From positions 566,761-630,760 of the forward strand of contig CAWAMP010000022.1 of assembly GCA_963783255.1 (NCBI GenBank): 64,000 nucleotides of DNA. Direction: 5' to 3'. The stretch comes from an uncultured Acidobacteriota bacterium (GTDB taxonomy: Bacteria; Acidobacteriota; Vicinamibacteria; Vicinamibacterales; Fen-181). Below the pieces are notes generated by a model, which was not told the DNA's origin, did not search any database, and saw only the letters and a list, made by a program, of their open reading frames with translations. The translations under genes and the position numbers were made by a program. Numbering within the stretch: position 1 is the first letter of the stretch; every line of letters starts with the position of its first letter. This document shows, piece by piece, positions 46,425-64,000 of the stretch.

Positions 46425-48410
46425 CTACTTGATCGGCGTGAGCTTGCCCCAGCCCTGCTCCTTCACCGTCTTCATGTCGTTGACCAGCTGCTCGGGCAGC
46501 TTCTCGTTCAGCTTCGGGCGCGTGGCCGCGTTGCCCAGGACCCAGCTGACCGCGTACACCGTCTTGGTCACGGCCTCGAGTTTGTCGTAGTCGATCCTCT
46601 CCGCGCTGTCGGTCACGCGGTGGTAGTCGCTGTGCAGCCCGTCGCAGAAGAAGGCGATCGGAATCCCCATCTTGACGAAGTTGTAGTGGTCGCTGCGGGA
46701 GAAGATCCGCTGGCCGCTCGTGCCCGGACCGAGGTTGTCGTGCGTCGCGTCCGGCACTACCGTGTCGTAGAAATCGCTGAGCTTCATCTTCAGGTAGCGG
46801 CCGTTCACGTCCGCCACGATCTTCCCGAGCTCCGCACTCGCGATGCGGGGACCGACGACGAACACCTCGTTCGGCTCGGCCAGCTTGTAGGATGGCGGGT
46901 CGACGTAGCCGGGTGTCTTGCTGCGGCCGACCATGTCCATGTTCAGATCCGCGACGACCTTGGTGATGTCGACCGGCGGGAACTGGTTGAAGTACTGCGA
47001 GCCCCAGAGCCCCTTCTCTTCGCCTGCCATCCACAGGAAGATGATGGTCCGCTTCGCGCGCCGGCCCTTCGCGGCACCGGTCGCGTACGCTCTCGCCATG
47101 GCCATCATCGCGACACATCCCGACGCATCGTCATCGGCGCCGTTGTAGACGCCGTCGCCGTTCGCGTCGGCAGCGGCGAGGCCGTTGTGATCGAGGTGGG
47201 CGCTGATCACGACGTACTCGTTCTTCAGCACCGGGTCGCTCCCTTCGACCATGGCCATGACGTTGTAGGCGTACTTCTTGTCGGAGGTGACCGCGAGCTT
47301 GAGCGTCACCTTCTTGTCCGCCGCGAGGTCGAACGAGTCGAGCCTGGCGTTGGCCGCGGCGCCGTTGAACACCTGCGCGCCGGTCAGCTTCTCGCCCTGG
47401 AACAGGCCGTTGATGAGCTCGACGCCTGCCATGATCGCCGGCACGGAAGCGGGCCGGTTCGCCTGGAACTTCACGACCTGGTAGGACGGGCCGTTGAGCG
47501 AGGCGCGGGGCGCGGTCGGCGTCGCCATGCCGGAGAGTTGCTGGAACGTGGGAATCGTGATGATGCCGACGGCGCCGTTCCTCGCGGCGTAGGTCTGCGG
47601 CGTCGTAAAGTCGGTGTTCTCGACGCCGAGCGGGTTGGGCGGCCCGCCGCGGCCACCGCCGCCACGCCCGCCGGCGCCCGCGCCCGCCGCGGCCTGGGCT
47701 GCCGCGAGCTCGGCGGGCAGGCCGGCCACCACCATCACCTTCCCCCGAACGTCGATGCCCTCGTACGGATTCGTCTTCGTCTTGTTGATGACGTAGCCGT
47801 TCCCGACGAAGACGAGGTTGGCCGACGAGATCTCGGCCGGCGTCACGCCGCCGCCCCCGCGCCCACCGCCGCCTCCGCCCGCCGTCCAGTCCTTACCGTA
47901 CTCGAACGCGCGAGGTACGGCGGGCGGCACCGGCGCCGGCGCGGCTGCGCGGGCTCCTGGCACGGCCGCCGCGCCCGCCCCGGCGGGTGCACCCGCGCCG
48001 CCTCGCCCGCCCCGTCCACCGGCCGCGGCCAGCGTGATCGACAGCTTCATGTTCGGGGTGTCGTTCTGGCTGCTGATCAGGTCGAACGGCACCAGATAGG
48101 CCTGGAGCGGTCCGTCGGCCGGCGCGACGCTGCGAGCCGGCGTAAGACCCCATTCCTTCATGTGGCTGGCGATATAGAGCGCTGCCGTGTCGTATCCGCG
48201 CGAAGGCAGATTGCGGCCCTCGAGTTGGTCGGAGGAGAGGAAGTACTCGTAGGTCTTCAGTTCGTCCTGGGTGATCGCGTCGGCGTTGCCGAACGCCTTG
48301 CCGGACGCCTTGATGTACGGCGACTTGGCCTGCTGAGCCGCCACGCCTGTCCACATGAGCAGCGCCAGCAGCCCGATGAGAAGTGAGGTGGAACCAGTGA
48401 TTCGACGCAT
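46425..48410 (-). CDS. secreted M28-family aminopeptidase with PA-like insert and Gly/Arg/Ala low-complexity segments
   Basis: It has a signal peptide. M28 metal-ligand blocks are VISAHLDHNG and YNGADDDASG. Length is 661 aa. Confidence 0.85.
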   Translation of the reverse strand: MRRITGSTSLLIGLLALLMWTGVAAQQAKSPYIKASGKAFGNADAITQDELKTYEYFLSSDQLEGRNLPSRGYDTAALYIASHMKEWGLTPARSVAPADGPLQAYLVPFDLISSQNDTPNMKLSITLAAAGGRGGRGGAGAPAGAGAAAVPGARAAAPAPVPPAVPRAFEYGKDWTAGGGGGGRGGGGVTPAEISSANLVFVGNGYVINKTKTNPYEGIDVRGKVMVVAGLPAELAAAQAAAGAGAGGRGGGGRGGPPNPLGVENTDFTTPQTYAARNGAVGIITIPTFQQLSGMATPTAPRASLNGPSYQVVKFQANRPASVPAIMAGVELINGLFQGEKLTGAQVFNGAAANARLDSFDLAADKKVTLKLAVTSDKKYAYNVMAMVEGSDPVLKNEYVVISAHLDHNGLAAADANGDGVYNGADDDASGCVAMMAMARAYATGAAKGRRAKRTIIFLWMAGEEKGLWGSQYFNQFPPVDITKVVADLNMDMVGRSKTPGYVDPPSYKLAEPNEVFVVGPRIASAELGKIVADVNGRYLKMKLSDFYDTVVPDATHDNLGPGTSGQRIFSRSDHYNFVKMGIPIAFFCDGLHSDYHRVTDSAERIDYDKLEAVTKTVYAVSWVLGNAATRPKLNEKLPEQLVNDMKTVKEQGWGKLTPIK

Positions 48411-48485
48411 GCCTGCCTCGGTTCTTTGTGTGTCAGAAGATGGACGGGAGCTTGGGTCGCATTACGACACGGGCCCCGCGGTCGT

Positions 48486-51400
48486 TTAGTGCGGGTGTCC
48501 AGACCCCGGGGCCGGCCACTCGACCAACACGCGGTGCTCCAGGGTGCCAGGCTTGGGGGGCGTGGGCGGGCCAAGGCGGTCCGTGATGGCCTGCGCCTCG
48601 GCTGGCCGGCCGAGCCGCACGAGACATTGCGCCTGGAGCCGGTCTTCGAGCCGTTCGTCCACATCCTCCGCGTACGGCTTCCCGGCACCCAGGTTCTCCG
48701 GCCACTCCCGCGCGGCGGCCACGCGCCTCGCGGCTTCGGCCCACCTCCCCGCCCGGGCATCGGCGGCCCCCAGCATCAGCTGCGCCTCGCGGTAGAGCGC
48801 CCGCCCCTCGGTGGCGCCTTCGTACGGCAGGACCCTCAACCTGGCGAGGGCGTCGCCCGCCTCGGCGAACCGCCGACTGAACAGCAGCGCCTTGGCGTGC
48901 AGCATGCCGAGCATGTAGTTGCCGGGCGACGCCTTGAAGTAGCGCGCCGCGATGTCGAGCGCCCGGTCGAACGCCTTGTCGTCAATGAAGCGCTCTGCCA
49001 AGAGCTTGCCGTAGCGCCATTCACGCGGGTCGAGCTCCGCCGCGTGCCGCAGGTCGGCCAGTGAGCTCTCACGCGAGGCCGATTCGAGCGCCTTTGCCCT
49101 CCCCGCGTAGAACGGCGCGAAGTCCGGCACGTTCCCGCAGGAGACGAGGAGGTCGCGCGCCCGCGCCACCTCGTGTCGGCTCCAGAGGACGAGCGCCAGG
49201 TAGTACTTCGGACGCCAGTTCTCGGTCCGGCGCATCGCCCACTCGAACACCCGCGCGCTCTCGGACCGGAACGGGAACACGAGCCGCGGCGACGCCGCGT
49301 CGGCCGTCTTCAGAGTCCCGGCGGCAGCGGGATCGTGGAGCGCGTCCTGGATGAACGCAAGCCAGTAGAAGACTTCGCCCTGCGGAGGCGCCAGTTCGAG
49401 CACCTGCCGGGCCTCGTGCAGCAGCCCGAGGTCGTGATACCAGGAGGCGAGTTCGAGGAACGTCTCGTGCGGCATCTCGTGCCTGACCCCGCCCACGAAC
49501 TCCTTCCGGCTCGTCTCGTCCTTCTGGTTCAGGTAGCGCTCGAACCGAGCGAAGTGGTTGAGGGGAAGGTGCAGCGGAGCCGAGTCGTCGGCGAGAGCCA
49601 GCGTCAGGTTGCCGCGCAGCCGTTCGACCACCGTCGTGAGCTGGAACGCCTCGACGTTGTTCGGGTCCGACAGCCACGCGCGCTCCGTATAGTCCCGAGC
49701 CTTGGCCAGATTCCCGCCCCGGAGGTGGATCTTCGCGAGTTCGACCTCGGCGGCGGACCGAAACGCAGGTGACGAGGCCGCCACCTCGAACCCGTCCAGC
49801 GCGTCCACGATGCGGCCGAGGCGGACCGACGCGAGGCCGTAGTAGTAGTTCGACGCCGGGTCGTACGTGTCGATGGCAAGGCCTCTCCGGGCAAGGTCCC
49901 ACGCGCCCTTGTAGTCCATGGCCCGGTAGCGCACGATCGCCAGGTCGGCGAGCGCGGGAAGGAAGTTCGGGTCCCGTTCGAGGCACGCCTCCAGTTCGGT
50001 CTGAGCCCGGACGTAGTCGCGCTGACGCATCCACTCCTTGCCCTTCAGGTGGAGCCCCTGGACCGACTGCCAGTCGAAGTTCTTCGGCGACTCGACCGGC
50101 CGCGACAGTTCGTCGCCCGCCGCCGGCCGGTAGTCCATCCAGGTCCCGATGCGCACGCGCAGCCGGTCGGCGGGCACCCGCACGTCGACCGACTGCGACC
50201 AGGTCTGCATCGGCGCCAGCGACAATCGGGCCGCGAACACGACCCGCTCGCCGTCGAGCACCTCGAGTGGCTCGTTCAGCAGCACCCGGAGCGGCGAGAA
50301 CCGGAGCTCCATTGCCTTCGCCGTCACGTCCGGCGCGCCCTTCCCCACACCCGGCCGCTTCGTCCCCGGCAGGACGACGTTCAGCGCGCCGTGCTCGTTG
50401 GCCTTGACGTAGCCGCGCGTTTCTTTCACCGGGAACCAGGTACTCGGTCCACGTGTCGGTCGAGTACCGGCTCGAAGCCGCGGTGCTTGAACGGCGTGAG
50501 GGTGCTCCCCTCCGCAGCCTGATTGAACAGCCGGCCCGACTGCACCTCCACGTATTGCCCGTCGGCGTCGGTCAGGAGCTTCTCCCAGATCATCCCTTGT
50601 CGCGACAGGCCCCAGATCCACGCCTTCTTCCCGAGCTTGTCGTCGCGCGTCGAGTACCGCCCCATCCCGAAGTCGTCGTCGTGCCAATACGCGCCGAAGA
50701 AATCCGAGTAGCGGCCGAAGACGTGGTAGGACTTGTAGGGGCCGAAGTCGTTTTGTTCGTAGAACGCCAGGTTCCTCCCGTTGCCGGGGTGGATGGGCCA
50801 CGGGAAGACCTCGCCGCCGTGCCCCAGGTAGTGCGTGCCCGGGTAGACCAGCTCGAGATTGCCGGCCGCCTTGATGCCCGCGTTCATCCACGTGTAGTAG
50901 GGCTGCTCGATCGGCGTCGCGTTGTGCCAGACCGAGCGCGTCGTGAAATACGCCTTGTCGTGCGGGAGGGTGATGACGAGCCGCCAGGGCGTGCGCGTCA
51001 GCAGGTCCAGCACGCCGATGACGACCGTCGCGCCGTCCGCGTCGGTCCGCGTCGCGTAGTCCACCGGCGTCGCGCAGTTCGGCGTGTGGCCGATGATGCC
51101 GTAGTTCGGCTCGATCCCGCCGCTCGTCCACGGCCCCCGCATCGCGATGTCGCGGAACTTCACCACCTGATTGTTGTAGATGAACGACCGGGCCGTGGAC
51201 TTCTCGAAGGCCGCCCAGATCTTCCCGCCAATCTCGGGCAGGATCATCACGCGCAGGTGGTCGTTCTCGAGCTCGACGACCGTCCACTCGCGGTCCACCG
51301 GCGTATCCGTGTAGCCCTCGAACCGGAAGTACGGGTAGATCCGGCCGACCTCGGGAATCGGGTTGGGATCGGAGAACGGATAGGTGCGGAAAACCTTCTT

Positions 51401-51502
51401 GAACTCGCGCACGGTCGCGCGGCCGGGCTCCGCGCCCGCCGGCGCTGCCGCCATCAAGACCAGGGCCACCGCCAGCGTCGTCCATCGTCTCCAGGTCTTC
51501 AT
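48486..51502 (-). pseudogene. DUF5107-like (aldose-epimerase-like N-domain + TPR C-domain) secreted protein, frame-disrupted
   Basis: The N-terminal 355 aa lie in ORF 50426..51769 from ATG 51502 (signal peptide, FKKVFRTYPFSDPNPIP). The C-terminal 650 aa lie in ORF 48486..51485 (WFPVKETRGYVKANEHG, then TPR-like repeats). The frames change at about 50437-50470. Confidence 0.7.
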
Positions 51503-51574
51503 TGTGGGTCGGATTCTAGCACCCCTTGACGCCCGCCGGCCTCGCGGTGAAACATCGTGGACCCGAGGTGGCCG

Positions 51575-51793
51575 ATGCGAGCCCGACTGTCGGTGGTCAC
51601 GGCGTTCGTCCCAGCACTGGCGCTGGTGGCCGGCCTGCCGTTCGTGAACCGTCTTGAGCCGATGGTGTTCGGCCTGCCCTTTCTCCTGTCCTGGATCCTC
51701 GGCTGGGTGCTGGCGACCCCGCTCTTTCTGGCCGCCGCCTACCTCCTGGCCGATCGGACGTCCGATCATCCGGAAGACGGGTCGCGCGGATGA
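51575..51793 (+). CDS. DUF3311-like small membrane protein partnered with a symporter
   Basis: A 72-aa protein with two TM helices and GAGGTG 5 nt before the ATG. Its stop overlaps the symporter ATG (ATGA at 51790-51793). Confidence 0.55.
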   Translation: MRARLSVVTAFVPALALVAGLPFVNRLEPMVFGLPFLLSWILGWVLATPLFLAAAYLLADRTSDHPEDGSRG

Positions 51794-53223
51794 CGGTCCC
51801 CCTGCTCGTCATTCTGGCGTTCATCCTCGCGTCGGCGGCGGTCGGGATGGTGGGACGCGGCCGGGGCGAGATGAACCTCGAACGGTGGACGGTCGGCGGC
51901 CGCCGTTTCGGCCTCATCCTCGTCTGGCTGCTGATGGCCGGAGAGATCTACACGACGTTCACGTTTCTCGGGGCGAGCGGCTGGGCCTATTCGCGGGGCG
52001 CCCCGGCCTTCTACATCCTCGCCTACGGCACGATCGGCTACATCATCTCGTTCTTCCTGCTCCCGCCGGTCTGGCGCATGGCGAAGCGCCTCGGCCTCCA
52101 CACGCAGCCCGACTTCTTCCTCGCGCGATACGGCAGCCCGGCGCTCGCCGGGATGGTGGCGGTCGTCGGCGTCGTCTCGATCGTGCCCTACCTGCAACTC
52201 CAACTCGCGGGCCTCGGCATGATCGTCGAGACCGCCAGCGGCGGAGCGATCGCCTCGGCTCCGGCCATCGTCCTCGCCTTCGTGCTGACGTGCGTCTTCG
52301 TCTACACGAGCGGCCTGAAGGGAATCGCGTGGGTCGCCATCGTCAAGGACGTTTCGATGGTGGTCGCCATCGTGGTCATCGGCGTCGGCCTGCCCGCGAT
52401 GTACTTCGGCAGCCTGCGCGGAATGCTGGCCGAGCTCGTCCGGCAACATCCCGCCCACCTGACGTTTCCGGGCGCGACGACGACGATGGACGTGGGGTGG
52501 GTGGCCAGCACCATCCTGCTGACCGGCATGGGCTTCTACTGCTGGCCGCACGGGTTTGCGGCGACATTCTCGGCGAAGGACGAGCGCACGATCCGGCGCA
52601 ACGCCGTGATCATGCCGCTCTACCAGATCCCGATCCTGCTCGTCTTCTTCGTCGGATTCACGGCCCTGCTCGTCCTGCCCGGCCTCGAGCAGCCGGACAA
52701 GGCACTGCTGACGCTGGTCACCCGCAGCTACCCGGGCTGGTTCGCCGGGTTCGTGGGCGGCGCCGGGGCGGTCACGGCGATGGTCCCCGCGTCGATGCTG
52801 CTGCTGGTCTCGTCGACGCTCGTGGCCAAGAACATCTACCGGCCGCTGCGACGGTGCGAGGTGGGCGACGCGGAACTGATGCGCGCCTCGCGCGGGTTCA
52901 TGCTGGTCATCGCGGTCGTCGCGCTGGTGCTGGCGCTCTGGTCACCCAACGAGCTGGTGAAGCTGCTGATCTTCGGCTACGACGGGATTGCGCAGTTCTT
53001 CCCCGGCATCGCCCTGGGTGTGTTCACCCGCCGAGTCAGTGCGCGCCCGGTCATCCTGGGCCTCGTCGCCGGAGAAGCCGTCGTCATCTCGCTGATCTGG
53101 ACCGGCCACGACCCGTTCCTGGGCATGAACGCCGGGTTCGTGGGACTCGCCGTCAACGGACTGGTCGCACTGGTGTCGATGGCGATCGGTGGCTCGCCCG
53201 CGGCACTCGAGGGCGAGGCGTGA
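51790..53223 (+). CDS. sodium:solute symporter (SSS) family transporter
   Basis: A 477-aa polytopic protein (GRRFGLILVWLLMAGEIYTTFTFLGASGWAY). It is translationally coupled to the upstream small membrane protein. Confidence 0.9.
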   Translation: MTVPLLVILAFILASAAVGMVGRGRGEMNLERWTVGGRRFGLILVWLLMAGEIYTTFTFLGASGWAYSRGAPAFYILAYGTIGYIISFFLLPPVWRMAKRLGLHTQPDFFLARYGSPALAGMVAVVGVVSIVPYLQLQLAGLGMIVETASGGAIASAPAIVLAFVLTCVFVYTSGLKGIAWVAIVKDVSMVVAIVVIGVGLPAMYFGSLRGMLAELVRQHPAHLTFPGATTTMDVGWVASTILLTGMGFYCWPHGFAATFSAKDERTIRRNAVIMPLYQIPILLVFFVGFTALLVLPGLEQPDKALLTLVTRSYPGWFAGFVGGAGAVTAMVPASMLLLVSSTLVAKNIYRPLRRCEVGDAELMRASRGFMLVIAVVALVLALWSPNELVKLLIFGYDGIAQFFPGIALGVFTRRVSARPVILGLVAGEAVVISLIWTGHDPFLGMNAGFVGLAVNGLVALVSMAIGGSPAALEGEA

Positions 53224-53305
53224 GTCCGCAGTCATCCGTTCTGAGTTCGGAGTTCGGAGTTCTGAGTTCTGAGTTGTGAGTGGTGAGTGGTGAGGCGAGA
53301 GGAAC
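53222..53305 (+). repeat. 7-nt-period array, locus F (12 phased heptamers filling the whole spacer from stop to start codon)
   Basis: Units read GAGTCCG CAGTCAT CCGTTCT GAGTTCG GAGTTCG GAGTTCT GAGTTCT GAGTTGT GAGTGGT GAGTGGT GAGGCGA GAGGAAC, then AC-ATG (53308). Confidence 0.9.
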
Positions 53306-53307
53306 AC

Positions 53308-54471
53308 ATGGACAGGGCACTGGCGGCAGAAGTCGAGTCGATGGCCGGCACGCTGGTGGCGTGGCGGCGCGACTTCCACCGGCACCCGGAACTCGGGTTC
53401 GAGGAGCACCGGACGTCCGGCGTGGTGCGCGCGTTCCTCGAGGCGACGGGCATCGAAGTCCGCTCGTGCGGCAGGACGGGGCTCCGGGGCTTCCTCCGAG
53501 GCGGAAGGGCGGGCCGGACCGTGGCGCTTCGCGCCGACATGGACGCGCTGCCGGTCGCCGAGATCGCCGACCACGACTACCAGTCCGAGCATCAGGGCGT
53601 CATGCACGCGTGCGGGCACGACGGCCACATGGCCATCCTGATGGGCGCCGCCAGGATCCTGGCCGCCCGGCGCGACACGCTCGCCGGAAACGTCGTGTTC
53701 CTGTTCCAGCCGTCCGAGGAGAGATCGCCGGGCGGCGCGCCGCTCATGATCGAGGAAGGCGCCCTCGAGGGAGTGGACAGCATCTTCGGCCTTCACCTGT
53801 GGCAGCCACTGCCTTCGGGCGTCGTGGGCCTGCGCGCGGGCGCCATGATGGCGCAGGCCGACGAGTTCGAGGTGGTCGTCCACGGTCGCGGCGGCCACGC
53901 GTCGCAGCCGCAGATGACGGTCGATCCCGTCGTGGTCGCCTCGCACCTCGTCGTCGCGGCGCAGACCATCGTCAGCCGGTTCGCGGACCCGGTGAAAGCC
54001 GCCGTCGTGTCGTTCACCACGATCCACGGCGGTCGGATTCACAACATCATCCCCGACTCGGTGACGATGGCCGGGACCGTGCGGACGCTCGACCTGGCGA
54101 CTCAGCGGGCCGTGAAGCAGCGGCTCGGCGAGGTGTGCGAGGCGACGTGCCGGTTGTTCGGCGCCACCGCCGAATTCACGTACGCGGACGGCTATCCGCC
54201 GCTGCTGAACGACGAGTCGTCGGTGGACCTCGTGTCCCGCGCGGCCGCCCGCGAACTGGGCGCCGACCGCGTCCGAACCATCGCGCCGGTGATGGGCGGC
54301 GAGGATTTCGCGTACTTTCTGCAGCGCGTCCCCGGAGCGTTCGCGATGCTGGGCACCGGCGACAACCGGCCGTACCCGCACCACAACGCGCGGTTCGACA
54401 TCGACGAGAGCGTCCTGCCGATCGGTGTGCGGCTGATGACCGCCGTCGCGCTGGAGATGATGCAGGGGTAG
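53308..54471 (+). CDS. M20D-family amidohydrolase (N-acyl-amino-acid amidohydrolase / hippuricase type)
   Basis: It contains WRRDFHRHPELGFEE, MHACGHDGH, FQPSEE and the GGEDFAYF blocks of M20D. Confidence 0.9.
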   Translation: MDRALAAEVESMAGTLVAWRRDFHRHPELGFEEHRTSGVVRAFLEATGIEVRSCGRTGLRGFLRGGRAGRTVALRADMDALPVAEIADHDYQSEHQGVMHACGHDGHMAILMGAARILAARRDTLAGNVVFLFQPSEERSPGGAPLMIEEGALEGVDSIFGLHLWQPLPSGVVGLRAGAMMAQADEFEVVVHGRGGHASQPQMTVDPVVVASHLVVAAQTIVSRFADPVKAAVVSFTTIHGGRIHNIIPDSVTMAGTVRTLDLATQRAVKQRLGEVCEATCRLFGATAEFTYADGYPPLLNDESSVDLVSRAAARELGADRVRTIAPVMGGEDFAYFLQRVPGAFAMLGTGDNRPYPHHNARFDIDESVLPIGVRLMTAVALEMMQG

Positions 54472-54596
54472 ACCGCAGCCGCTTGCGACTGGCGGCCCTT
54501 CGACACGCTCAACGTTCTCCCGACCCAAGTCGAGGGACGATTGGCGGCGGCGCGAGTTGATTGAACGCACCCGTTCGGCTATACGATAATCCCCCC

Positions 54597-55956
54597 ATGA
54601 GATACGTCGCTGTCGTCGCCATCGCCCTCGCCGTGCTCGCGGCCCCGCTCGGTGCCGCCGACGCCTGGCGGCCCCTGTTCAACGGACGAACCCTCGACGG
54701 CTGGGTGGCCTGCAACGGCACGGCGCCGTTCACGGTCGAGGACGGCGCCATCGTCGGCAGGACCGTCGTCGGCTCGCCGAACAGCTTCCTCTGCACCAAG
54801 GAGGCGTTTGGCGACTTCATTCTCGAGTACGAGGCCCGGATCGAGTCGGAGATGAACAGCGGCGTCCAGGTCCGCGGCATCAGCGACCCGGCCATCAAGG
54901 GCGGCCGCGTGCACGGCTACCAGGTGGAGATCGACCCGTCGGCCCGCGCGTGGACCGGTGGCATCTACGACGAGGCGCGCCGCGGCTGGCTGCACACGCT
55001 CGAGGGGCAGAAGGACGCGCAACAGGCCATCCGCAAGGGCGAATGGAACCGATTCCGCGTCGAGGCCATCGGCACGTCCATCCGGACGTGGCTGAACGGC
55101 GTCCCGTGCGCGGACATCGTCGACGATCTGACGCCGCGCGGCATCGTTGCGCTCCAGGTGCACGCGATCGGATCGGACCAGACCAAGGTGGGCGAGACCA
55201 TACGATTCCGCAACATCCGCGTGCTCACCGAGAACCTGGAGAGGAACCGGACGAAGGACCTCAAGGACACGCCGCAGTTCAACTACATCCCGAACACGGT
55301 CAGCGAACGCGAGAGGGCCGACCGCTGGACGCTGCTCTGGGACGGCAAGACGACGGCGGGCTGGCGGGGCGCGAAACTGGATCGGTTCCCGGCCTCCGGC
55401 TGGGAGATCAGGAACGGCGAGCTCTCGGTGCTCGAAGCCGAGGGGCGCGAGGCGGCGGCCGGCGGCGACATCGTCACCGTCGCGAAGTACAAGGACTTCG
55501 AGCTGATCGTCGACTTTAGCATCACCAAGGGCGCCAACAGCGGCATCAAGTACTTCGTCGACACCGAACTCAACAAGGGCGAAGGGTCCTCAATCGGCTG
55601 CGAGTTCCAGATCCTCGATGACGCGGTGCACCCGGATGCCAAGCTGGGGGTGAACGGCAACCGGAAGCTGGCCGGGCTGTACGACCTCATACCGCCGCGG
55701 AACGTGCGGTTCAATGGCGTCGGCGAGTGGAACCGCGCGCGGATCGTCGTCCGCGGCTCCCGCGTCGAGCACTGGATGAACGGGTTCAAAACGGCGGAGT
55801 ACGAGCGCGGCACCCAGCTGTGGCGCGCGCTGGTCGATCACAGCAAGTACACGGTGTGGCCGGCGTTCGGCGAGGCGCCCACCGGCCACATCCTGCTGCA
55901 GGACCACGGCAACCGCGTGTCCTTCCGGTCGATCAAGAATCAGGAAGCTGGAATAG
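54597..55956 (+). pseudogene. secreted protein with two DUF1080 (3-keto-disaccharide hydrolase-like) domains; native stop lost through a +1 frame error
   Basis: It has a signal peptide. Two repeats match WRPLFNGRTLDGW...FRNIRV and WTLLWDGKTTAGWRG...VSFRSIK. Deleting one A at 55938-55939 gives ...VSFRSIKIRKLE-TAG (stop 55954-55956). As given, the ORF reads on antisense to the S46 gene as far as 56936. Confidence 0.75.
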
Positions 55957-55967
55957 GCAGAGGGCCG

Positions 55968-58133
55968 CTACTGCACGCCCATCTCCTTCAGCAGGAACCC
56001 GGCCTTGCCGACCTTCTCGGTGACCCAGAGCACGTAGCGGATGTCGACGGCGATCGAGCGGCTGTAGGCCTCGTTCCACGCGTAGTCGTTGATGGTGGCG
56101 CCCCAGGCGCGATCGAAGTTCACGCCGACCAGTTCGCCCTTCGCGTTCATCACCGGACTGCCCGAATTCCCGCCCGTCGTGTCGGTGTTGTAGAGAATCG
56201 CCACCGGCAGCTCGTTGACCTTCGGCAGCCGGTACCGGCCGTAGTCCTTCGCCTTGAACAGGTCGCGGACCGCCTGCGGCGTCGCGTACGGATACTCGTC
56301 GCGCGTCTTCTGCATGACGCCGGTCAGCGTCGTGATCGGCGTGAGGTGGGTCGCGTCGGCCGGCGAGTAGCCGCGAATGTGTCCGTAGGTGAACCGCAGC
56401 GTGCTGTTGGCGTCGGGCACGAAGTCCTTCTGGAGGAACGCCTGCTTGACGTCGATGAGCAGCGCCGAGAGCTTCGACAGCTCGGCGGCGCGCCGCTGGC
56501 GGGTGTCGCGCAGCTTCTGGAGAAGCGGAGCCACGTCCTTGACGAAGTTCACGAACGGATCGTCGAGCCTCGCCATCTCCTCCGGGGTCCTGCCGATGGC
56601 GCTCGCCAGCCCCTCGGGCGTCTTCAGGGTCGTCGCCGCGAGCGCCTCGTCCACCGCCCTCCCGATGTTCTGGTCCGAGAAGTCGCCGCTCAAGCGGTCG
56701 TCGACCGGGGCAATCCGCTGGTCCTTCGGCAGACGGGCCGCCATCGCGAGCATCTTGCGCAGGAACAGCCTCTCGGCCGGCTCGTGGTAGTTGGCGAAGT
56801 TGGCCGCCGACGCCTTCCTCGTGTCGGCCAGCGCGCCATCCCGGTACGGCGCCGCGCGCTCGGCGCTCGGCCGGGCCATCTCGCGGCTCGCCTCGAACAC
56901 GGTGGTCGCCAGCCGGACGAGCTGGGACATCCCTGACGACGTGCCCGAGAAGGTATCGAGCGCCAGCTCGTACTGCGAGCGGCTCGTCATGTCGGCGTAG
57001 ACCCTCCCGGTCTCTTCGAGCACCGTCCCGTACGCCGCCTTGCGCCGCGGGTTCGCGTCGATGAACTTCTGGAGCGCCGCTTCCTCCTGCCGCTTCGAAG
57101 CCACCAGCCCGAGCCGCCCCATGCCCACGAGCTTCCCGCGGTAGTTCTTCATCGTGTTGGCGAGCCCTCTGATCCGCGCGTCGAACTTGAGCGCCGTCCC
57201 GCGATCCGCGCGGCCCAGCTCCTCCATCGTCCGGATCTGCCACTCGTTGAGATCGGCGACGAACGGCATGCGCACGTCCTCCTCGTACGCCATGTAGAAG
57301 GAGGTCTGGTGCCGGTAGGTACGGCCGGGATACCCGAGGATGAAGACGAAGTCCTCCTCGTTGACGCCCTGCGGGTTCACCTTGAGGAACCGCTTCGGGT
57401 GATACGGCACGTTGGTCACCGCGTAGTCCGCCGGCTTGCCGTCGGCCGCGGCGTACGCGCGCAGGAACGAGAAGTCTCCGGTGTGGCGCGGCCACACCCA
57501 GTTGTCGTCTTCGCCGCCGAACTCGCCGATCGAGCGCGGCGGCACGTACGCCAGCCGGACGTCTCTGAGCGTGGTCGAGATGAACATCAGGTACGACTTC
57601 CCGGGCAGCATCTCGGAAATGCCGATGGACTTGCCCGGCAGGTCCTTCTCGGCCGCCCTCGTCAATTCGGCGATGCGCCCTTCGATCGCCTTCGCGCGTC
57701 CGATCGGGTCCATCGTGTCCGTCACGGCGCTCATCACCTGGGCGGTCACGTCGCGCATCTGCTCGGTGATGCGCGCCGTCATGCCGCGGGCGCGGATCTC
57801 GTCGGAACGCGTGGCGGCGAGGAACCCGTTGGTCAGGTAGTCCCTCTCCACCGTGCTCACGGCCTGCACGGCGCTGAACACGCAGTGGTGATTGGTGATG
57901 ATCAGGCCGTCGGGCGAAACGAACGACGCGCTGCACCCGCCGAGGCTGACGATGCCCTCGATGAGGCTCGTGCCCTTCGGGTTGTAGATCTCGTCGGTCT
58001 CGATCTTCAGCCCCTTTTCCTTGAGCTTGAGGCCCGCGATCGACGTAATCGGGTACATCCCCTCTTCGCCGATCGTCGGGCGGAGAAGGGCCGCACACAG
58101 GATGATGGCAACGGCAAGCGCGCGTCGAGGCAT
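55968..58133 (-). CDS. S46-family dipeptidyl-peptidase (DPP7/DPP11 type)
   Basis: GGCSASFVSPDGLIITNHHC is the catalytic His block, and GGNSGSPV is the Ser block. The ATG at 58133 has GAAGGAG 7 nt upstream. Confidence 0.9.
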   Translation of the reverse strand: MPRRALAVAIILCAALLRPTIGEEGMYPITSIAGLKLKEKGLKIETDEIYNPKGTSLIEGIVSLGGCSASFVSPDGLIITNHHCVFSAVQAVSTVERDYLTNGFLAATRSDEIRARGMTARITEQMRDVTAQVMSAVTDTMDPIGRAKAIEGRIAELTRAAEKDLPGKSIGISEMLPGKSYLMFISTTLRDVRLAYVPPRSIGEFGGEDDNWVWPRHTGDFSFLRAYAAADGKPADYAVTNVPYHPKRFLKVNPQGVNEEDFVFILGYPGRTYRHQTSFYMAYEEDVRMPFVADLNEWQIRTMEELGRADRGTALKFDARIRGLANTMKNYRGKLVGMGRLGLVASKRQEEAALQKFIDANPRRKAAYGTVLEETGRVYADMTSRSQYELALDTFSGTSSGMSQLVRLATTVFEASREMARPSAERAAPYRDGALADTRKASAANFANYHEPAERLFLRKMLAMAARLPKDQRIAPVDDRLSGDFSDQNIGRAVDEALAATTLKTPEGLASAIGRTPEEMARLDDPFVNFVKDVAPLLQKLRDTRQRRAAELSKLSALLIDVKQAFLQKDFVPDANSTLRFTYGHIRGYSPADATHLTPITTLTGVMQKTRDEYPYATPQAVRDLFKAKDYGRYRLPKVNELPVAILYNTDTTGGNSGSPVMNAKGELVGVNFDRAWGATINDYAWNEAYSRSIAVDIRYVLWVTEKVGKAGFLLKEMGVQ

Positions 58134-58157
58134 GAACGGGCTCCTTCTCACAAGGAT

Positions 58158-58241
58158 GGCTCCTGGCTCTTGGCTCTCGGCTCCCGGCTCTCGGCAGAGA
58201 GCCAGACGCGGCCTGAGGCCGAAGGTCGAGAGCCCAGAGCC
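58158..58241. repeat. 7-nt-period array, locus H (12 phased heptamers with inverted arms)
   Basis: Units read GGCTCCT GGCTCTT GGCTCTC GGCTCCC GGCTCTC GGCAGAG AGCCAGA CGCGGCC TGAGGCC GAAGGTC GAGAGCC CAGAGCC. There is a perfect hairpin, GGCTCTC-GGCA-GAGAGCC (58186-58203). Confidence 0.85.
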
Positions 58242-58245
58242 GGTA

Positions 58246-58674
58246 TTATCGTGCAGGTCGGATGCGGAGGATCCCCAACTGGGCGAGCAGGCCGGTAAAG
58301 TCGTAGAAGCGCCGCTCCGCGGCGATGAGCAGATCGGGGTTCAGATCGAACAGCGACACGCCGTCGAACGAGCACCGCTTGCCCGTCCCGGCAAGCCCCA
58401 TGAAGCTGCCTCTGTGGGTGGCGCTGACCGAGAAGGCGACCGCCAGTCGGTGACCGTCTGTGATGGGTGTGTCGAAGCCGATCTGCCAGTCGGGGAAGAT
58501 CTCGAACAGCGTTTCATACGTGCCGCGAATCGCCAGCTGCCCCTCGACGCGGGCGAACATGGGGCTGTCGATCACACCGTTCTCGGCATGGTCGAGCGAG
58601 AGGGCCACCGCGTCGCGATGATTCCACCCGGCCGTGTGGCGCTCGATGAATGACGTGATCGGGTCGGTGGTCAT
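58246..58674 (-). CDS. SnoaL-like ester cyclase family protein
   Basis: A 142-aa protein with ITSFIERHTAGWNHRD, FEIFPDWQ and the THRGSFMGLAGTGK blocks typical of ester cyclases. Confidence 0.7.
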   Translation of the reverse strand: MTTDPITSFIERHTAGWNHRDAVALSLDHAENGVIDSPMFARVEGQLAIRGTYETLFEIFPDWQIGFDTPITDGHRLAVAFSVSATHRGSFMGLAGTGKRCSFDGVSLFDLNPDLLIAAERRFYDFTGLLAQLGILRIRPAR

Positions 58675-58845
58675 CGCCCTCTCCCATCTTCAATGGCGGT
58701 GGGTGCCTGATGGTCGCCCGGGATGGATGTGAGTATACCGCGATTGCGGCGGCTACGCCTGCAGGAGGCAGCCGGCTTCGAATTGACGCATAATGGCGGT
58801 TTCGGCCCAGCTGTTCTGAAGCCGATTCCGGACAAAGAGGACATC

Positions 58846-60270
58846 ATGGCGACGAAGCGAGAGGAAGCCATGGAACGGCCGGAGCAGAACGCTCCCCTGC
58901 CTGTTCCTGCCTCGGTGAAGGGGCTTTCCAGAGACGAGGCCTACGGCCTCGGGAAGCAGTTGCGGAAGGCCTGTCCGAGGTCCTCCCACGCCGACTGGAA
59001 GCCGCCGCACGGCCGCCCCGATGCCGTCCTGCTCGTGCTCGAGGCCGAGAAGGGACGGATGCCGGACCTGCTCCCGCTCCGCCACGGGCGGATGGCGAAG
59101 TCGGCGTTCACCTTCTACAGGGGCGCGGCGCTCACCATGGCCTTCGACCTCGGCCGGTCGCCGGTGTCAGGCATCCGCGTGCAGTGCTGCGGGGACGCGC
59201 ACCTCTGCAACTTCGGCGGATTCGCCACGCCGGAGCGGAAGGTCATCTTCGCCATCAACGACCTCGACGAAACGCTCCCGGCGCCCTGGGAGTGGGACGT
59301 CAAGCGCCTCGCGGCCAGCTTCGTCGTGGCGTGCCGGGACAACGGCCTGAGCGAAGCGATCGCCAAGGACGCCGCAAGGACAGCGGTCCGCACCTACCGC
59401 GAGTCGATGGCCGAGTTCAGCCAGATGAAGACGCTGGAGCTCTGGTACTACACGCTGGAGGCGGACGAAATCGCGGCAAGCATCAAGGATGCCGCCATGC
59501 GCAAGCGTGTGATTGCCCGGATTCAGAAGGAACGGGGCAAGAGCATTGCGGAGGACGTCTTCCCGAAGCTCGTGGAGCACAAGGGGGACAAGCCCATCAT
59601 CAAAGACCAGCTCCCCACCATCTTCCACCTCGAGGGCCATCCGCCAGGCGAAATCCAGAAGGCCATGCACGACGCCCTCGCCGTTTATGCCGAGAGCCTC
59701 AATCCCGCCACACGGTCGTTGCTGAGCCGGTACGAACTCCACGATGCCGCCATCAAGGTGGTCGGCATCGGCAGCGTCGGCACAGCCTGCTGGGTGTTCC
59801 TGTTCACGGCCGGCGAGGGTGACCCGCTGTTCCTGCAGGTCAAGGAGGCGCGGGCGTCCGTGCTCGAGCCGTACGCCGGCGCGAGCGTCTTCCCCAACAA
59901 TGGCCAGCGCGTCGTGCACGGCTACCGGCTCATGCAGCCGGCCAGCGACATGTTCCTCGGCTGGTCCCAGGGCCCGAGGCGCCACTTCTTCATCCGCCAG
60001 CTGAGGGACATCAAGATCAGCGCTCGAGTGGAGGTGTTCGATTCGGCCGCAATGGACACGTACGCGACCTGGTGCGGACGGGCGCTCGCGCTCTCCCACG
60101 CGCGGTCCGGAATGTCGCTCCCGATCAGCGGGTACATGGGGAAGAGCGATGCCTTCGACAAGGCGCTCGCGTCGTTTGCGGCCGCCTACGCGGATCAGAA
60201 CGAGAAGGACCACGCAGCCCTGAAGCGGGCCATCAAGGCGGGCAAGGTCGACGCAGGTCACCAGGAGTAG
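58846..60270 (+). CDS. DUF2252 family protein
   Basis: A 474-aa protein from ATG 58846. It contains RHGRMAKSAFTFYRGAALTMAFD, CGDAHLCNFG and INDLDETLPAPWEWDVKRL, as I recall for DUF2252. Confidence 0.8.
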   Translation: MATKREEAMERPEQNAPLPVPASVKGLSRDEAYGLGKQLRKACPRSSHADWKPPHGRPDAVLLVLEAEKGRMPDLLPLRHGRMAKSAFTFYRGAALTMAFDLGRSPVSGIRVQCCGDAHLCNFGGFATPERKVIFAINDLDETLPAPWEWDVKRLAASFVVACRDNGLSEAIAKDAARTAVRTYRESMAEFSQMKTLELWYYTLEADEIAASIKDAAMRKRVIARIQKERGKSIAEDVFPKLVEHKGDKPIIKDQLPTIFHLEGHPPGEIQKAMHDALAVYAESLNPATRSLLSRYELHDAAIKVVGIGSVGTACWVFLFTAGEGDPLFLQVKEARASVLEPYAGASVFPNNGQRVVHGYRLMQPASDMFLGWSQGPRRHFFIRQLRDIKISARVEVFDSAAMDTYATWCGRALALSHARSGMSLPISGYMGKSDAFDKALASFAAAYADQNEKDHAALKRAIKAGKVDAGHQE

Positions 60271-61715: not shown

Positions 61716-61789
<74 letters not shown>

Positions 61790-61871: not shown

Positions 61872-61946
61872 TGGAGCGGGAAACGGGATTCGAACCCGCG
61901 ACTTCGACCTTGGCAAGGTCGCACTCTACCACTGAGTTATTCCCGC
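61872..61946 (-). tRNA. tRNA-Gly (anticodon GCC)
   Basis: The acceptor is GCGGGAA/TTCCCGC. The anticodon stem is CGACC/GGTCG with loop TTGCCAA. The T-loop is GGTTCGAATCC. Length is 75 nt including an encoded CCA. Confidence 0.9.
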
Positions 61947-61982: not shown

Positions 61983-62513
61983 CTAGGCAAGAGCGGGTGC
62001 CGCCGCGCCGAGGTCCGTCGGCCGAAACACCTGAATCCCCTCCACACGCTCGAAATCGCGATCGGCCGTCGCAATCGCACTCACCCCCGCATCGCGCATC
62101 GTCGCCACGATGATCGAGTCGTTCGTGAGAAGTCCCGTCTCGGCGCGAACGTCGGCAGCACCCATGAACAGTCTCACGTCGAGCGGAAGCACATCGATTC
62201 CCACGAGGGGAATCCGCTGGAGATACTCCCGATACTCTGTCAATTGCCGCACAACATCGGGCCGACTGCGCAGTTTCCTGCCGACTCCACCGGGCGGCAT
62301 CAGACCCTTCGAGAGAGCCTCGAACGCCATCAGACGATGACAAACCTCGGCCATGACGACCGTCGAGGTGACGCCGGTGATGGCGTGCTCCTCGCATCGG
62401 CGCAGCAGTGCTCGACACTCCGCGGATGAAGCAGAGAACACGTACAGAAGAACCGGGGAGTCGAGAAAGACCGTGGTCCCCGGCGGCAGGGCGTCAAGAC
62501 TCGAGCCAGTCAT
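61983..62513 (-). CDS. PIN-domain ribonuclease toxin (VapC-like)
   Basis: A 176-aa protein with acidic residues in PIN spacing (VFLDSPVLLY, MAEVCHRL, LTNDSIIVATM, TADRDFERV). It overlaps the upstream small gene by 20 nt. Confidence 0.8.
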   Translation of the reverse strand: MTGSSLDALPPGTTVFLDSPVLLYVFSASSAECRALLRRCEEHAITGVTSTVVMAEVCHRLMAFEALSKGLMPPGGVGRKLRSRPDVVRQLTEYREYLQRIPLVGIDVLPLDVRLFMGAADVRAETGLLTNDSIIVATMRDAGVSAIATADRDFERVEGIQVFRPTDLGAAAPALA

Positions 62514-62739
62514 CTTCGTCTTCCATGATCTCGCGCACCACCTCTGGCGGGAGCCGGAACACTCCCCAACTCGCGTCGACCAGGCTGGCCTTTGGAGCCG
62601 CATCCTGGGCCGGGCCGGCAAAGTAGCGCCTCAAGGCGTCCTCGAGAATCGCCGCCATCGGCCGCCCTTGGCGGGCGGCCTCGAGCTTCGCCCGGTGAAA
62701 CAGCGACGCGTCCATGACCGTACTCACCTTCTTCCTCAT
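62494..62739 (-). CDS. putative antitoxin of the PIN toxin
   Basis: An 81-aa protein, MRKKVSTVMDASLFHRAKLEAARQGRPMAAILEDALRRYF (ribbon-helix-helix-like), with an acidic tail. It sits upstream of and overlapping the PIN gene. Confidence 0.55.
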   Translation of the reverse strand: MRKKVSTVMDASLFHRAKLEAARQGRPMAAILEDALRRYFAGPAQDAAPKASLVDASWGVFRLPPEVVREIMEDEDDWLES

Positions 62740-62745
62740 TTCATA

Positions 62746-62777
62746 ATGATACCATGATTTCATGATATCATCATGAT
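62746..62777 (-). promoter_or_regulatory. AT-rich putative operator/promoter of the toxin-antitoxin pair
   Basis: This is the only AT-rich patch in the window. ATGAT occurs four times, starting at 62746, 62754, 62762 and 62773. The palindrome ATGATATCAT spans 62762-62771. It lies 7 nt upstream of the antitoxin ATG. Confidence 0.4.
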
Positions 62778-62782: not shown

Positions 62783-63160
62783 CTATCGGTAGACCGCGTC
62801 GAACGCGTTCTGGAACACGACAACCTTCAGGCCCGCGCCCGGCTCGAACTGCACAGCCACCACGTCGAACCGGCACGGCACGCCGTGCAGATGACGGCGA
62901 ACAAGGTAGTCCTCCGCCATGGCGGTCACCTTCGCCTGCTTGTGCAGCGTCACGGCGTCGGCCGGCTCGCCGTAGCGGTCGTTCGTCCTCGCCTTGACCT
63001 CCACGAAGACAATCGTCGGCCCGTCGCGGCAGACAATGTCAATTTCGCCAAAGCGAGTGCGGTAGCGGCGAGCAAGAACTGAGTACCCGCGGCGCTCCAG
63101 CTCGCGGCAGGCGAGGTCCTCGCCCGAAATTCCTAAGGAAATGCGATCCAGGGTGGGCAT
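62783..63160 (-). CDS. yraN: YraN-family (UPF0102) endonuclease-like protein
   Basis: A 125-aa protein with GEDLACRELERRGYSVLARRYR, GEIDIV and the VFVEVKAR blocks. Confidence 0.85.
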   Translation of the reverse strand: MPTLDRISLGISGEDLACRELERRGYSVLARRYRTRFGEIDIVCRDGPTIVFVEVKARTNDRYGEPADAVTLHKQAKVTAMAEDYLVRRHLHGVPCRFDVVAVQFEPGAGLKVVVFQNAFDAVYR

Positions 63161-63206
63161 ATGCCCGGATCAACGTGCAAGGACGGGGCCGGGGGGAGAA
63201 TCCAGC

Positions 63207-63286
63207 GATCTTGCGATCTTGCGATCTTGCGATCTTGCGATCTGGCGAACTGGCGAACTGGCGAACTGGCAATCGTGCGAAGTTGC
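63207..63286 (-). repeat. 8-nt-period array, locus E (10 phased octamers, best copy)
   Basis: The plus strand reads GATCTTGC x4, GATCTGGC, GAACTGGC x3, AATCGTGC, GAAGTTGC with no phase slip. It lies 47 nt upstream of the yraN start and 29 nt downstream of the ribF stop. Confidence 0.95.
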
Positions 63287-63314
63287 GAACCGGGAGGGAG
63301 CGGTCCGTCGACGG

Positions 63315-64000
63315 CTATCGGGGGCTCGTCGACAACGCGGTGCGGGCGGAGTGGCAGTCGGCGGCGATCTGCGCCTTCAGCGCCTCGACACCGTCGAACG
63401 TTCTTTCGTCGCGGATGCGGTGGACGAACGACACGCGGATCGGCGCACCGTAGAGATCGCGGTCCATGTCGAGGATGTGGGTTTCGACGACGGTCGCCGA
63501 CGGCAGGTGGAACGTCGGACGGATTCCGATGTTCGTGACCGACGGGTACTCGACGCCATCGAGCGTCGCGAGCGTCGCGTAGACGCCGTTGGGCGGCAGC
63601 AGTTCGTTCGGCGTGTCCAGGTTGGCCGTTGGAAACCCGAGCGTCCGTCCTCTCTGGAGCCCGTGGACCACGACGCCGTCCATACTGTAGCGGCGTCCCA
63701 ACAGCGTGGCCGCCTCCTCAACCCGCCCCTCCGCGATCAGCTGCCTCGCACGCGAACTCGACACGACGAACTCCTTGTACCGCACCGGCTCGATGGCCTC
63801 CGCGCCGAATCCGTACCGCGACCCGAGCTGTCGCAACGTCGAGAGGGTTCCGGCCCGGTCGTGCCCGAACACGAAACCCGCGCCAACCCAGACCTCCGCG
63901 ACGCCCAGCCACCCGGCCAGCACCAGCCGCACGAACGTCTCCGGGTCCCATGCCGCCACGTCGCGCGTGAACGTGACAATCGCGACGCCCTGCACGCCGA
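63315..64000 (-). CDS. ribF: bifunctional riboflavin kinase / FMN adenylyltransferase, 3' part (5' end outside window)
   Basis: The riboflavin-kinase blocks are GVVVHGLQRGRTLGFPTANL and VETHILDMDRDLYG. The ORF is open to the window edge. Confidence 0.85.
   Translation of the reverse strand, partial: GVQGVAIVTFTRDVAAWDPETFVRLVLAGWLGVAEVWVGAGFVFGHDRAGTLSTLRQLGSRYGFGAEAIEPVRYKEFVVSSSRARQLIAEGRVEEAATLLGRRYSMDGVVVHGLQRGRTLGFPTANLDTPNELLPPNGVYATLATLDGVEYPSVTNIGIRPTFHLPSATVVETHILDMDRDLYGAPIRVSFVHRIRDERTFDGVEALKAQIAADCHSARTALSTSPR

Follow-up and report, generated by a model that had tools for sequence, protein, structure and literature searches.

The ribF–yraN spacer

The putative ribF and yraN genes on contig CAWAMP010000022.1, from an Acidobacteriota genome (Fen-181), are separated by a tandem array of octamers with the unit GCAAGATC. 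This array belongs to a dispersed family of polar, almost exclusively extragenic repeats, which is described here from a 64,000-nt stretch of the contig (the window; all unlabelled coordinates are relative to it) and from its relatives. The spacer is laid out as follows:

63315–63995, minus strand: RibF gene (Pfam)
63207–63286, minus strand: solo arm of ten octamers in perfect phase, the focal array
62783–63160, minus strand: YraN gene (Pfam)

The ten phased octamers read exactly as an earlier note on this DNA had claimed. On the plus strand they are GATCTTGC (four copies), GATCTGGC, GAACTGGC (three copies), AATCGTGC and GAAGTTGC; in the minus-strand mRNA sense this becomes GCAACTTC GCACGATT, GCCAGTTC three times, GCCAGATC, and GCAAGATC four times. 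Tandem Repeats Finder reports the tract as 63205–63288, with period 8, 10.5 copies, 86% matches and a score of 91. The array begins 28 nt after the ribF stop codon (63315–63317), and its sharp GCAAGATC end lies 46 nt from the yraN ATG (63160). There is no partner arm in the ribF–yraN spacer, and this is the only octamer locus in the window that stands solo. It is unstructured, with a predicted RNA fold no better than those of shuffled sequences (z = +0.28), and consensus scans of the spacer for sigma-70 promoters and intrinsic terminators found no match.

Other octamer loci in the window

The same unit vocabulary had been reported at four further loci, all of which were found, with the limits of two arms now refined (8640–8675 and 42658–42699):

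1–20, minus strand: putative inverted partner of 40–127, truncated at the window edge; tentative, being degenerate and recognized by eye
40–127, plus strand: sense arm of eleven phased units
8563–8594, minus strand: left arm of an inverted pair in a convergent spacer (fold and unit scan)
8640–8675, plus strand: right arm of the same pair, CTTC GCAAGATC TCGACTTC GCACGATC GCAAGGTG
42597–42628, minus strand: gene-proximal arm of the inverted pair in the RRM–infA spacer
42658–42699, plus strand: stop-proximal partner arm, 10 nt from the RRM-gene stop codon (42710–42712)
42710–43075 and 42334–42552, both minus strand: genes for an RRM protein and IF-1 (Pfam)
46310–46349, minus strand: five-unit array in the M28–GGDEF spacer
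46355–46418, no strand assigned: strong hairpin directly after the M28 peptidase stop codon (46425–46427)
46425–48410 and 45325–46260, both minus strand: genes for an M28 peptidase and an FHA-GGDEF protein (Pfam)

The 40–127 array consists of GCACGATC alternating with NNNGGTTC, giving a 16-nt higher-order period, and then two copies of GCAAGATC and one of GCAAGATA; it stops 13 nt short of the ATG (141) of a sodium:solute symporter gene (141–1634, plus strand). Its putative partner reads ATCTCGC GATCGTGG GATC on the plus strand. At the second locus the left arm (GATCTTGC GACGTTGC GATCTTGC GAACTGGT on the plus strand) begins 1 nt past the TAG (8559–8561) of an NmrA-like gene (7296–8561, plus strand), and the right arm ends 15 nt from the stop codon (8691–8693) of a minus-strand TRAP DctQM gene (8691–10556). 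The mRNA-sense readings of the remaining two arrays are CGTACTTC GCAAGATC GCAAGACC GCAAGATC for 42597–42628, 44 nt ahead of the infA TTG (42552), and GCCAGTTC twice, GCCACTTC, GCACGATC, GCAAGATT for 46310–46349, 49 nt ahead of the FHA-GGDEF ATG (46260). The array-to-start distances are thus 13, 44, 49, and 46 nt (the last for the focal array), which confirms the 13–50 nt given previously. The arms of the 46355–46418 hairpin (GCGACTGGCGGCTTGCGGC / GCCGCAAGCCGCCAGTCGC) resemble degenerate units, and the 3′ arm continues into the adjoining array, so that this locus too counts as an inverted pair. A possible two-unit remnant at 54476–54498, also proposed in the earlier note, is too degenerate to be distinguished from chance.

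Every window array falls between genes, as called from codon-position G+C. With a run defined as at least 3 phased units, each with at most 2 mismatches from GCAAGATC, the window (G+C 64–72%) contains 4 runs, against a mean of 0.02 and a maximum of 1 in 50 first-order Markov simulations.

Distribution of the family

A probe of three perfect GCAAGATC units was scanned against one genome per species and against metagenome and viral contigs. This probe favours arrays with a homogeneous block, of which the flank-decay and orientation tests below are independent; outside the window, genes were called crudely and their starts are approximate. Thirty-two genome loci matched, 19 of them from Acidobacteriota metagenome-assembled genomes (MAGs); as many as 8 come from a single, fragmentary MAG. 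The metagenome scan gave 36 loci, about 25 of which, at 62–71% G+C and from soil and sediment, show the same grammar; there were no matches in the viral contigs. The other 13 genome matches come from unrelated taxa; each is a lone locus that lacks the surrounding grammar, and they resemble sporadic simple repeats.

More than 50 loci, spread over several Acidobacteriota MAGs and soil contigs, share the unit grammar, which upholds the earlier view that this is a true dispersed family rather than a set of independent slippage events. The nearest named relative of the YraN protein (80% identity) is annotated as Vicinamibacterales, and the family is probably specific to this lineage of Acidobacteriota.

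Long perfect (GCAAGATC)n arrays were also seen, one each, in unrelated low-GC genomes or contigs (L009, L040, L064, L072), examples being Testudinibacter (36% GC) and an 11-unit array in a 41% GC contig. These have no ACTTC/AGTTC grammar, and are probably independent simple repeats.

Polarity and placement at gene boundaries

Read in the sense direction, arrays run from NNNAGTTC/NNNACTTC units at the spacer-interior (inner) end to a homogeneous GCAAGATC block at the gene-facing (outer) end, where the last unit reads GCAAGAT and its eighth base is anything but C. The two edges differ in kind. Past the inner ends of 62 arms, successive phased 8-mers still resemble the unit (means of 4.0 and 4.3 mismatches), and a final TC is present in 51 of 62; past the outer ends of the same arms the means are 5.2, 5.6, and 6.0, near random, and a final TC is present in 14 of 62. 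The inner edge is therefore graded and the outer edge sharp (Wilcoxon p = 1e-4). The conserved unit order proposed previously, with TTC-ending units distal and GCAAGATC gene-proximal, holds across this larger set.

Inverted pairs of arms are found at four of the five window loci and at many loci elsewhere. Their order is fixed: all 11 strictly scored pairs read 5′-GATCTTGC…GAAGT – centre – ACTTC…GCAAGATC-3′, and there are at least 18 pairs if degenerate partner arms judged by eye are included. Arms range from 3 to 18 units. The centres are GC-rich mini-hairpins which are locus-specific, and no loop sequence is shared among the paired elements apart from residual units.

Where both flanks of a solo arm are visible, the outer end is closer than the inner end to a gene in 21 of 27 cases (p = 0.006). 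The GCAAGAT end faces a co-oriented start codon in 21 of 37 scored arms, at a median distance of about 25 nt (from a crude start estimate; 13–50 nt in the window), and a stop codon in the other 16. In 15 of these 16 the outer end is between −15 and +21 nt from the stop, in agreement with the stop-codon adjacency described in the earlier note; in outline, the sharp edge is found 0–15 nt past a stop or 13–50 nt ahead of a co-oriented start. That note had also read the orientation as following the mRNA. This is one half of a rule symmetric about gene boundaries: the GCAAGAT end points toward the nearest boundary, whether start or stop.

The arrays are almost always extragenic (50 of 51 elements). 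The roughly 38 elements that could be classified by spacer type comprise about 19 co-directional, 12 convergent and 7 divergent cases. An avoidance of divergent spacers, suggested by the absence of arrays from all eight of those in the window, does not extend to the relatives, where the 7 divergent elements were found; given about 5 arrays in 49 spacers, none in eight is not a significant deficit.

Predicted structure and terminator scans

The paired elements are predicted to fold strongly. The RRM–infA spacer has a predicted energy of −64.2 kcal/mol (z = −2.8), with a perfect 15–17 bp stem between the arms; the 8562–8690 spacer has z = −3.2 against shuffles; and the M28–GGDEF spacer reaches −82.5 kcal/mol (z = −5.3). 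Paired elements, octamer and heptamer (see below) together, account for 3–4 of the 6 most structured spacers in the window.

A hairpin followed by a T-run was not found in any array spacer: the array hairpins precede octamer units or unique sequence. Over 1–20000 and 40001–60000, such candidates are fewer than in shuffled sequence (3 vs. 6.6 and 4 vs. 7.5) and all lie inside genes, and over the same 40 kb sigma-70 consensus promoters are not above shuffle. The arrays were accordingly rejected as intrinsic (Rho-independent) terminators, since the GC-rich hairpins are present and the U-tract is missing. Rfam covariance models gave no match in the window at gathering score except to tRNAs; permissive scans returned sub-threshold miRNA-hairpin noise.

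As a separate observation, a hairpin at 46269–46296 (CTCCCAC…GTGGGAG), just upstream of the FHA-GGDEF start codon (46260), is conserved in the relative L033. It would sequester the Shine-Dalgarno sequence GGGAGG, and may be a candidate translational control structure.

Turnover at orthologous spacers

Comparison of relatives had been proposed as a check for unit-number polymorphism, and this was found at three spacers. The ribF–yraN spacer has 10 octamers in the window, 4 degenerate ones at the same place and in the same orientation in L077, none in L076 or L038, and four GGCTGGC heptamers in place of octamers in L039; the roughly 45 nt ahead of the yraN ATG are conserved across all five. Five other contigs encode an IF-1 protein identical to that of the window. 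One of these, the syntenic close relative L033, has a paired RRM–infA element with 4 GCAAGATC units to the window's 3, and in the other four, which are more distant, the spacer is 61 nt long and holds one unit (gatcGCACGATCgaac or gatcGCAAGATCacac), with no hairpin. The M28–GGDEF spacer has 5 units in the window and 11 in L033, where the stem following the stop codon is retained through paired changes: GGCGG:CCGCC becomes GGGGG:CCCC, an added C in one arm is matched by an added G in the other, and the loop differs. The pairs L026/L048 and L006/L059 are also unequal in unit number.

These differences imply that arrays persist over short evolutionary distances only and change length freely. Different unit families can, moreover, take the same spacer.

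Heptamer arrays in the same niche

Tandem Repeats Finder was run on about 210 kb, consisting of the window and 20 Acidobacteriota loci. Two periods dominate, with 44 arrays of period 7 and 42 of period 8; no other period has more than 9. The octamers all belong to one family (GCAAGATC, GCACGATC, GCCAGATC, GCCAGTTC), and the heptamers form several, including GTACTTC, CTAGCCA and GCCGACC. Those in the window are:

58157–58245, no strand assigned: heptamer pair, five copies of TGGCTCY with an inverted partner (GAGAGCC…); z = −2.2
53238–53294, plus strand: heptamer array, GTTCTGA/GTTCGGA grading into GTGGTGA
32515–32608, no strand assigned: hairpin with CAATACT heptamers in a convergent spacer, GAACTGGGAAT… / …ATTCCCAGTTC; z = −5.6

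The first lies between the stop codon of a SnoaL gene and the start codon of an S46 peptidase gene, both on the minus strand, and has the mirror-pair architecture of the octamers built from an unrelated unit. The second occupies the spacer from a stop codon at 53223 to the Shine-Dalgarno sequence and ATG (53308) of an M20 peptidase gene. The third has a CCAGTTC motif in common with the inner units of the octamer family. Arrays of 7- or 8-nt units occupy 8 of the 49 window spacers, about one in six.

Heptamer arrays of differing units were also seen at L039:2884–2911, L076:523–550 and 3876–3927, and L077:402–498 and 3841–3880; these are the orthologous ribF–yraN, carA–carB, and post-carB spacers of related genomes. 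Some spacers seem to be array-prone regardless of unit sequence.

Coding potential and an element within dnaE2

Coding had been dismissed in the earlier note because of the 8-nt period, incorrectly. On both strands the unit is free of stop codons in all frames, and the sense reading has no start codon (the array codons are GCA AGA TCG CAA GAT CGC AAG ATC), making an in-frame insertion possible. The one in-gene element is a complete inverted pair at L028:6216–6345, in frame in the linker between the HHH_6 and OB-fold domains of a dnaE2-like gene (3678–6776), where its predicted translation is SCDLAILRSCDL…SHDRKIARSQD. G+C at third codon positions (GC3) is 0.51 in the insert and 0.79 and 0.94 in its flanks, and GAAG is found on both sides. 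Close homologues (P0121–P0125), from several genomes, have both peptides, with varying lengths; distant homologues are without them. Array DNA can thus become part of a protein, as a disordered linker.

Many dnaE2 homologues on long contigs are called as short C-terminal proteins starting MLEV..FCNNCAHDW (P0131, P0141, P0152, and similar). The genes may be split at this point, or the caller may begin afresh within a zinc-finger-like insert that precedes the linker.

Comparison with known repeats

The closest analogy drawn previously was to the short tandemly repeated repetitive (STRR) sequences of heterocystous cyanobacteria, which are dispersed, lineage-specific, intergenic heptamer arrays with several unit families per genome. 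The analogy is apt, but does not amount to membership. Shared features are a short unit whose length is not a multiple of three, dispersed and lineage-restricted tandem arrays, an intergenic location (here 50 of 51), and several unit families in one genome. The unit here is 8 nt (GCAAGATC/GCCAGTTC) and from another phylum, and does not conform to the heptamer STRR consensus. To our knowledge neither a graded inner and sharp outer edge, a fixed orientation to gene boundaries, mirror pairs around a unique hairpin, nor 16-nt higher-order units have been described for STRRs. Tandem heptanucleotides are also mentioned in Calothrix (PMC4692102).

The TAACTGA repeats of marine Beggiatoaceae, some Cyanobacteria, and Bacteroidetes have an AT-rich 7-nt unit in 2–6 copies; just one indirect (inverted) repeat was reported, and a post-transcriptional role has been proposed (PMC4679880). 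Like the octamers, they are abundant intergenic tandem units with a heterogeneous set of genes downstream; they are found mostly a few to tens of nt before start codons (PMC4679880), whereas of the 37 scored octamer ends 21 face a co-oriented start and 16 a stop. The octamer arrays differ in unit, in having about half of their ends at stop codons, in their usual inverted pairing, and in the lack of conservation between orthologous spacers.

Terminator or mRNA-stabilizing roles are known for some repetitive extragenic palindromic (REP) sequences. REPs, BIMEs and REPINs resemble the octamer elements in being extragenic, often stop-proximal, lineage-specific, high-copy, and arranged as inverted hairpin-forming pairs (PMC3116915, PMC3337134). 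Such pairs make up four of the five loci in the window, where the focal array is solo, and strict scoring gives at least 11 more elsewhere. The arms are, however, tandem arrays of variable length (3–18 units) instead of a fixed 20–40 nt palindrome, and the centres are unrelated; the elements were rejected as REPINs, which are near-identical copies of fixed length with a family-typical spacer. No RAYT gene was found in the window.

Other comparisons are more distant. The GGGAATC and GGGGA(T/C)T heptamers of Xanthomonas and Nostoc are likewise intergenic and vary extensively in length and sequence in the same spacers of close relatives, but are G-rich and form quadruplexes, while GCAAGATC has no G-runs (PMC4692102). 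Borg tandem repeats also evolve rapidly and can lie in frame within genes, as in the dnaE2 linker here, but are perfect repeats unique to each locus, on an archaeal extrachromosomal element, where they create disordered protein regions (PMC9879509); the octamers are a single unit family spread over bacterial chromosomes and almost always extragenic. The literature on prokaryotic satellites and long-unit simple sequence repeats (SSRs) describes intergenic 6–11 bp units over-represented in some genomes (PMC6749651; a 2007 survey, as relayed by PMC4692102), and attributes them to polymerase slippage combined with weak mismatch repair of loops of at least 4 nt (PMC6749651, PMC4060949; the same survey, again via PMC4692102). 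No Acidobacteriota family or GCAAGATC unit is described in PMC6749651, PMC4692102, or PMC4060949. SSRs of contingency loci, where a change in unit number switches the promoter or reading frame of surface or other variable genes, invite comparison in that unit number varies; the neighbours here are infA, yraN, a GGDEF gene and transporters, and no promoter hexamers were found.

In full-text literature the octamer strings match primers only, and no description of a tandem, octamer or REP family was found for Acidobacteria or Vicinamibacter. There is no Rfam match either, in line with the earlier note, which did not recognize a named repeat: the family appears undescribed, and none of its closest analogues has this unit, phylum or architecture.

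A proposed slippage-driven satellite family

The data show that the tract belongs to the family and that the arrays are polar, occupy an extragenic niche, have the potential to form hairpins and turn over rapidly. We favour, tentatively and at somewhat below even confidence, the view that the focal tract is one arm of a slippage-driven, lineage-specific extragenic satellite family of Acidobacteriota, probably of Vicinamibacterales. Replication slippage or unequal exchange would add and remove units, and would do so most rapidly in the outer, homogeneous block. Mismatch repair corrects loops of at least 4 nt poorly (PMC4060949), and units of 7–8 nt belong to a class long noted as over-represented in bacteria (the 2007 survey as cited in PMC4692102). 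The graded inner edge and the homogeneity of the outer block suggest that recent gains occur in the latter, so that the degenerate interior units would be the older ones, grading into the GCAAGATC block. Selection acting at one end on the stop codon, and at the other on the conserved leader of about 45 nt, would set the sharp edges, and the unit itself would be tolerated because it is stop-free on both strands, start-free in the sense reading, and has little self-structure.

In paired elements the mirror arms would extend the central mini-hairpin into a stem of 15–35 bp starting within about 15 nt of the stop codon. Judging from sequence, such pairs are probably transcript 3′-end or terminator hairpins without a U-tract, a role made plausible by the compensatory maintenance of the stem and the lack of canonical terminators in the window. 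The focal solo array, by the same account, most likely has no sequence-specific function, and would be selectively neutral, recently expanded, unstructured filler of the ribF–yraN spacer: it is unstructured, has no partner, and is missing from the closest orthologous spacers, making a sequence-specific role unlikely.

Several points weigh against this explanation. Independent slippage alone cannot account for one octamer, together with its ACTTC/AGTTC inner units, at dozens of loci in several genomes; some step of dispersal to new spacers, by ectopic conversion or mobilization, is needed. Simple slippage predicts that both edges should be degenerate, not that the outer one should be sharp, and compensatory changes in a DNA palindrome can also come from arm-to-arm templated repair. 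Nor do all placements suit a terminator. Among 8 co-directional pairs, the transcribed strand does not tend to form the more stable hairpin (4 for, 4 against or equal); L011b, L055 and L063 are arms that lie in co-directional spacers and yet run antisense to both genes; and some arrays lie 17–26 nt before start codons in divergent spacers (L001, L006/L059, L073), where no terminator is needed and where, at such a distance, they must be transcribed or overlap a promoter. The dispersal and strict polarity left unexplained by slippage keep readings based on mobile elements, RNA leaders and DNA sites alive.

Alternative explanations

A non-autonomous mobile element, like a REPIN or MITE, is the first of these, possible if rather unlikely. 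A transposase encoded elsewhere would move the inverted pair in trans, solo arms would be decayed halves of the pair, and the tandem units would be secondary expansions of its terminal repeats. This is consistent with the dispersal of one sequence to many loci in several genomes, with the single polarity common to all pairs, with presence/absence polymorphism at orthologous spacers, with the REP-like stop-proximal extragenic niche (PMC3116915, PMC3337134), and with the complete pair inside dnaE2, with its GC3 of 0.51 against 0.79/0.94 in the flanks and GAAG on both sides. No consistent target-site duplication was seen, however, and pair centres are unrelated between loci, with arms of anything from 3 to 18 units. 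The short RRM–infA spacer keeps one unit at the hairpin site, so that deletion or expansion of a hairpin fits as well as insertion, and the occurrence of the same paired architecture in unrelated heptamers points away from one element and toward a general process. Among the roughly 56 window proteins none was found to have a transposase or Y1 (RAYT-type) domain, although 64 kb is a poor guide to the whole genome.

A cis-acting RNA element is somewhat more doubtful. Sense arrays in 5′ leaders and intercistronic spacers, with the unit now written GCAAGAUC rather than GCAAGATC, would be multivalent sites for single-stranded RNA-binding proteins (S1, cold-shock, RRM, or Hfq-like), or would tune translation by holding the leader free of structure, an idea put forward for the Beggiatoaceae TAACTGA repeats (PMC4679880), which provide an analogue on record. 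The 21 of 37 arms facing a co-oriented start codon (median about 25 nt; 13–49 nt in the window) are placed as this would require, and the arrays in divergent spacers are too near the start for a promoter to fit downstream. The solo array is unstructured despite a 68% GC genome, its sense reading is free of start and stop codons, and an RRM-protein gene adjoins one element, though this last is anecdotal. Yet the other sixteen arms point in the opposite sense at stop codons, and even close relatives do not keep an array ahead of a given gene; an unrelated heptamer can take its place. The downstream genes (infA, yraN, a GGDEF gene, a symporter) are functionally unrelated, and Shine-Dalgarno sequences after the arrays are inconsistent. 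Pairing with the 16S 3′ end was rejected, complementarity being limited, by inspection, to the 4-nt GAUC.

Arrays of DNA-level sites are improbable. These might be clustered GATC methylation sites, sites for nucleoid or regulatory proteins at gene boundaries, or phase-variable promoter spacers. A polarity symmetric about boundaries, whatever the gene orientation, is easier to state for DNA than for RNA, and hairpin stability without transcribed-strand bias, variation in unit number between relatives, and one GATC per unit at 8-bp spacing all fit. But this spacing would put successive sites on different faces of the helix, and neither the inner units nor the co-resident heptamer families contain GATC, which is not otherwise unusual in the window (431 per 64 kb). 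Dam methylation was rejected on these grounds, GATC being neither depleted nor special outside the arrays. No sigma-70-like hexamers were found in or beside the arrays, and the downstream genes are housekeeping ones, not typical contingency genes. The idea that the 8-bp period supplies −35 and −10 hexamers 24 bp apart was likewise discarded; by eye only GATAAT, at the end of the L006/L059 array, qualifies.

It is similarly improbable, if more far-reaching, that the arrays are not passive satellites at all but the cis part of a lineage-specific system for marking gene boundaries, in which a dedicated activity writes them outward from spacer hairpins (by templated repeat addition or hairpin-primed copying) or a modular protein reads them. 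If so, the fixed GCAAGAT-toward-gene polarity would reflect function, for example as boundary or insulator elements, or alternatively as RNase III-type processing stems with single-stranded tails.

Chance low complexity or an assembly artefact is effectively refuted: short-period repeats can be mis-assembled in MAGs, but 4–5 arrays are observed where 0.02 are expected by chance, and independent assemblies, produced by different projects on different sequencing platforms, contain the same structures.

Other features of the window

The only Rfam matches in the window are three minus-strand tRNA genes (61719–61789, 61875–61946, 27762–27847). AT-rich direct and inverted repeats of ATGATA type at 62730–62775, upstream of a 67-aa open reading frame and then a PIN-domain gene (61986–62513), look like a toxin–antitoxin operator and are unrelated to the octamer family. 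CTAG is nearly missing from the window, with 6 in 64 kb, and GATC is common, with 431 where base composition predicts 189.

Significance

Vicinamibacterales-type Acidobacteriota are among the most abundant soil bacteria, and their non-coding genome is almost unstudied. Of the window spacers that follow a stop and are strongly structured, most owe this to an array; canonical terminators are absent, and the arrays may therefore help to end or process transcripts. They are likely break or collapse points in MAG assemblies. Since unit number differs between near-identical strains, they are also ready-made variable-number tandem repeat markers for uncultured populations. Finally, with their sharp outer and graded inner edges and their mirror pairing, they offer a tractable bacterial case of directional satellite growth.

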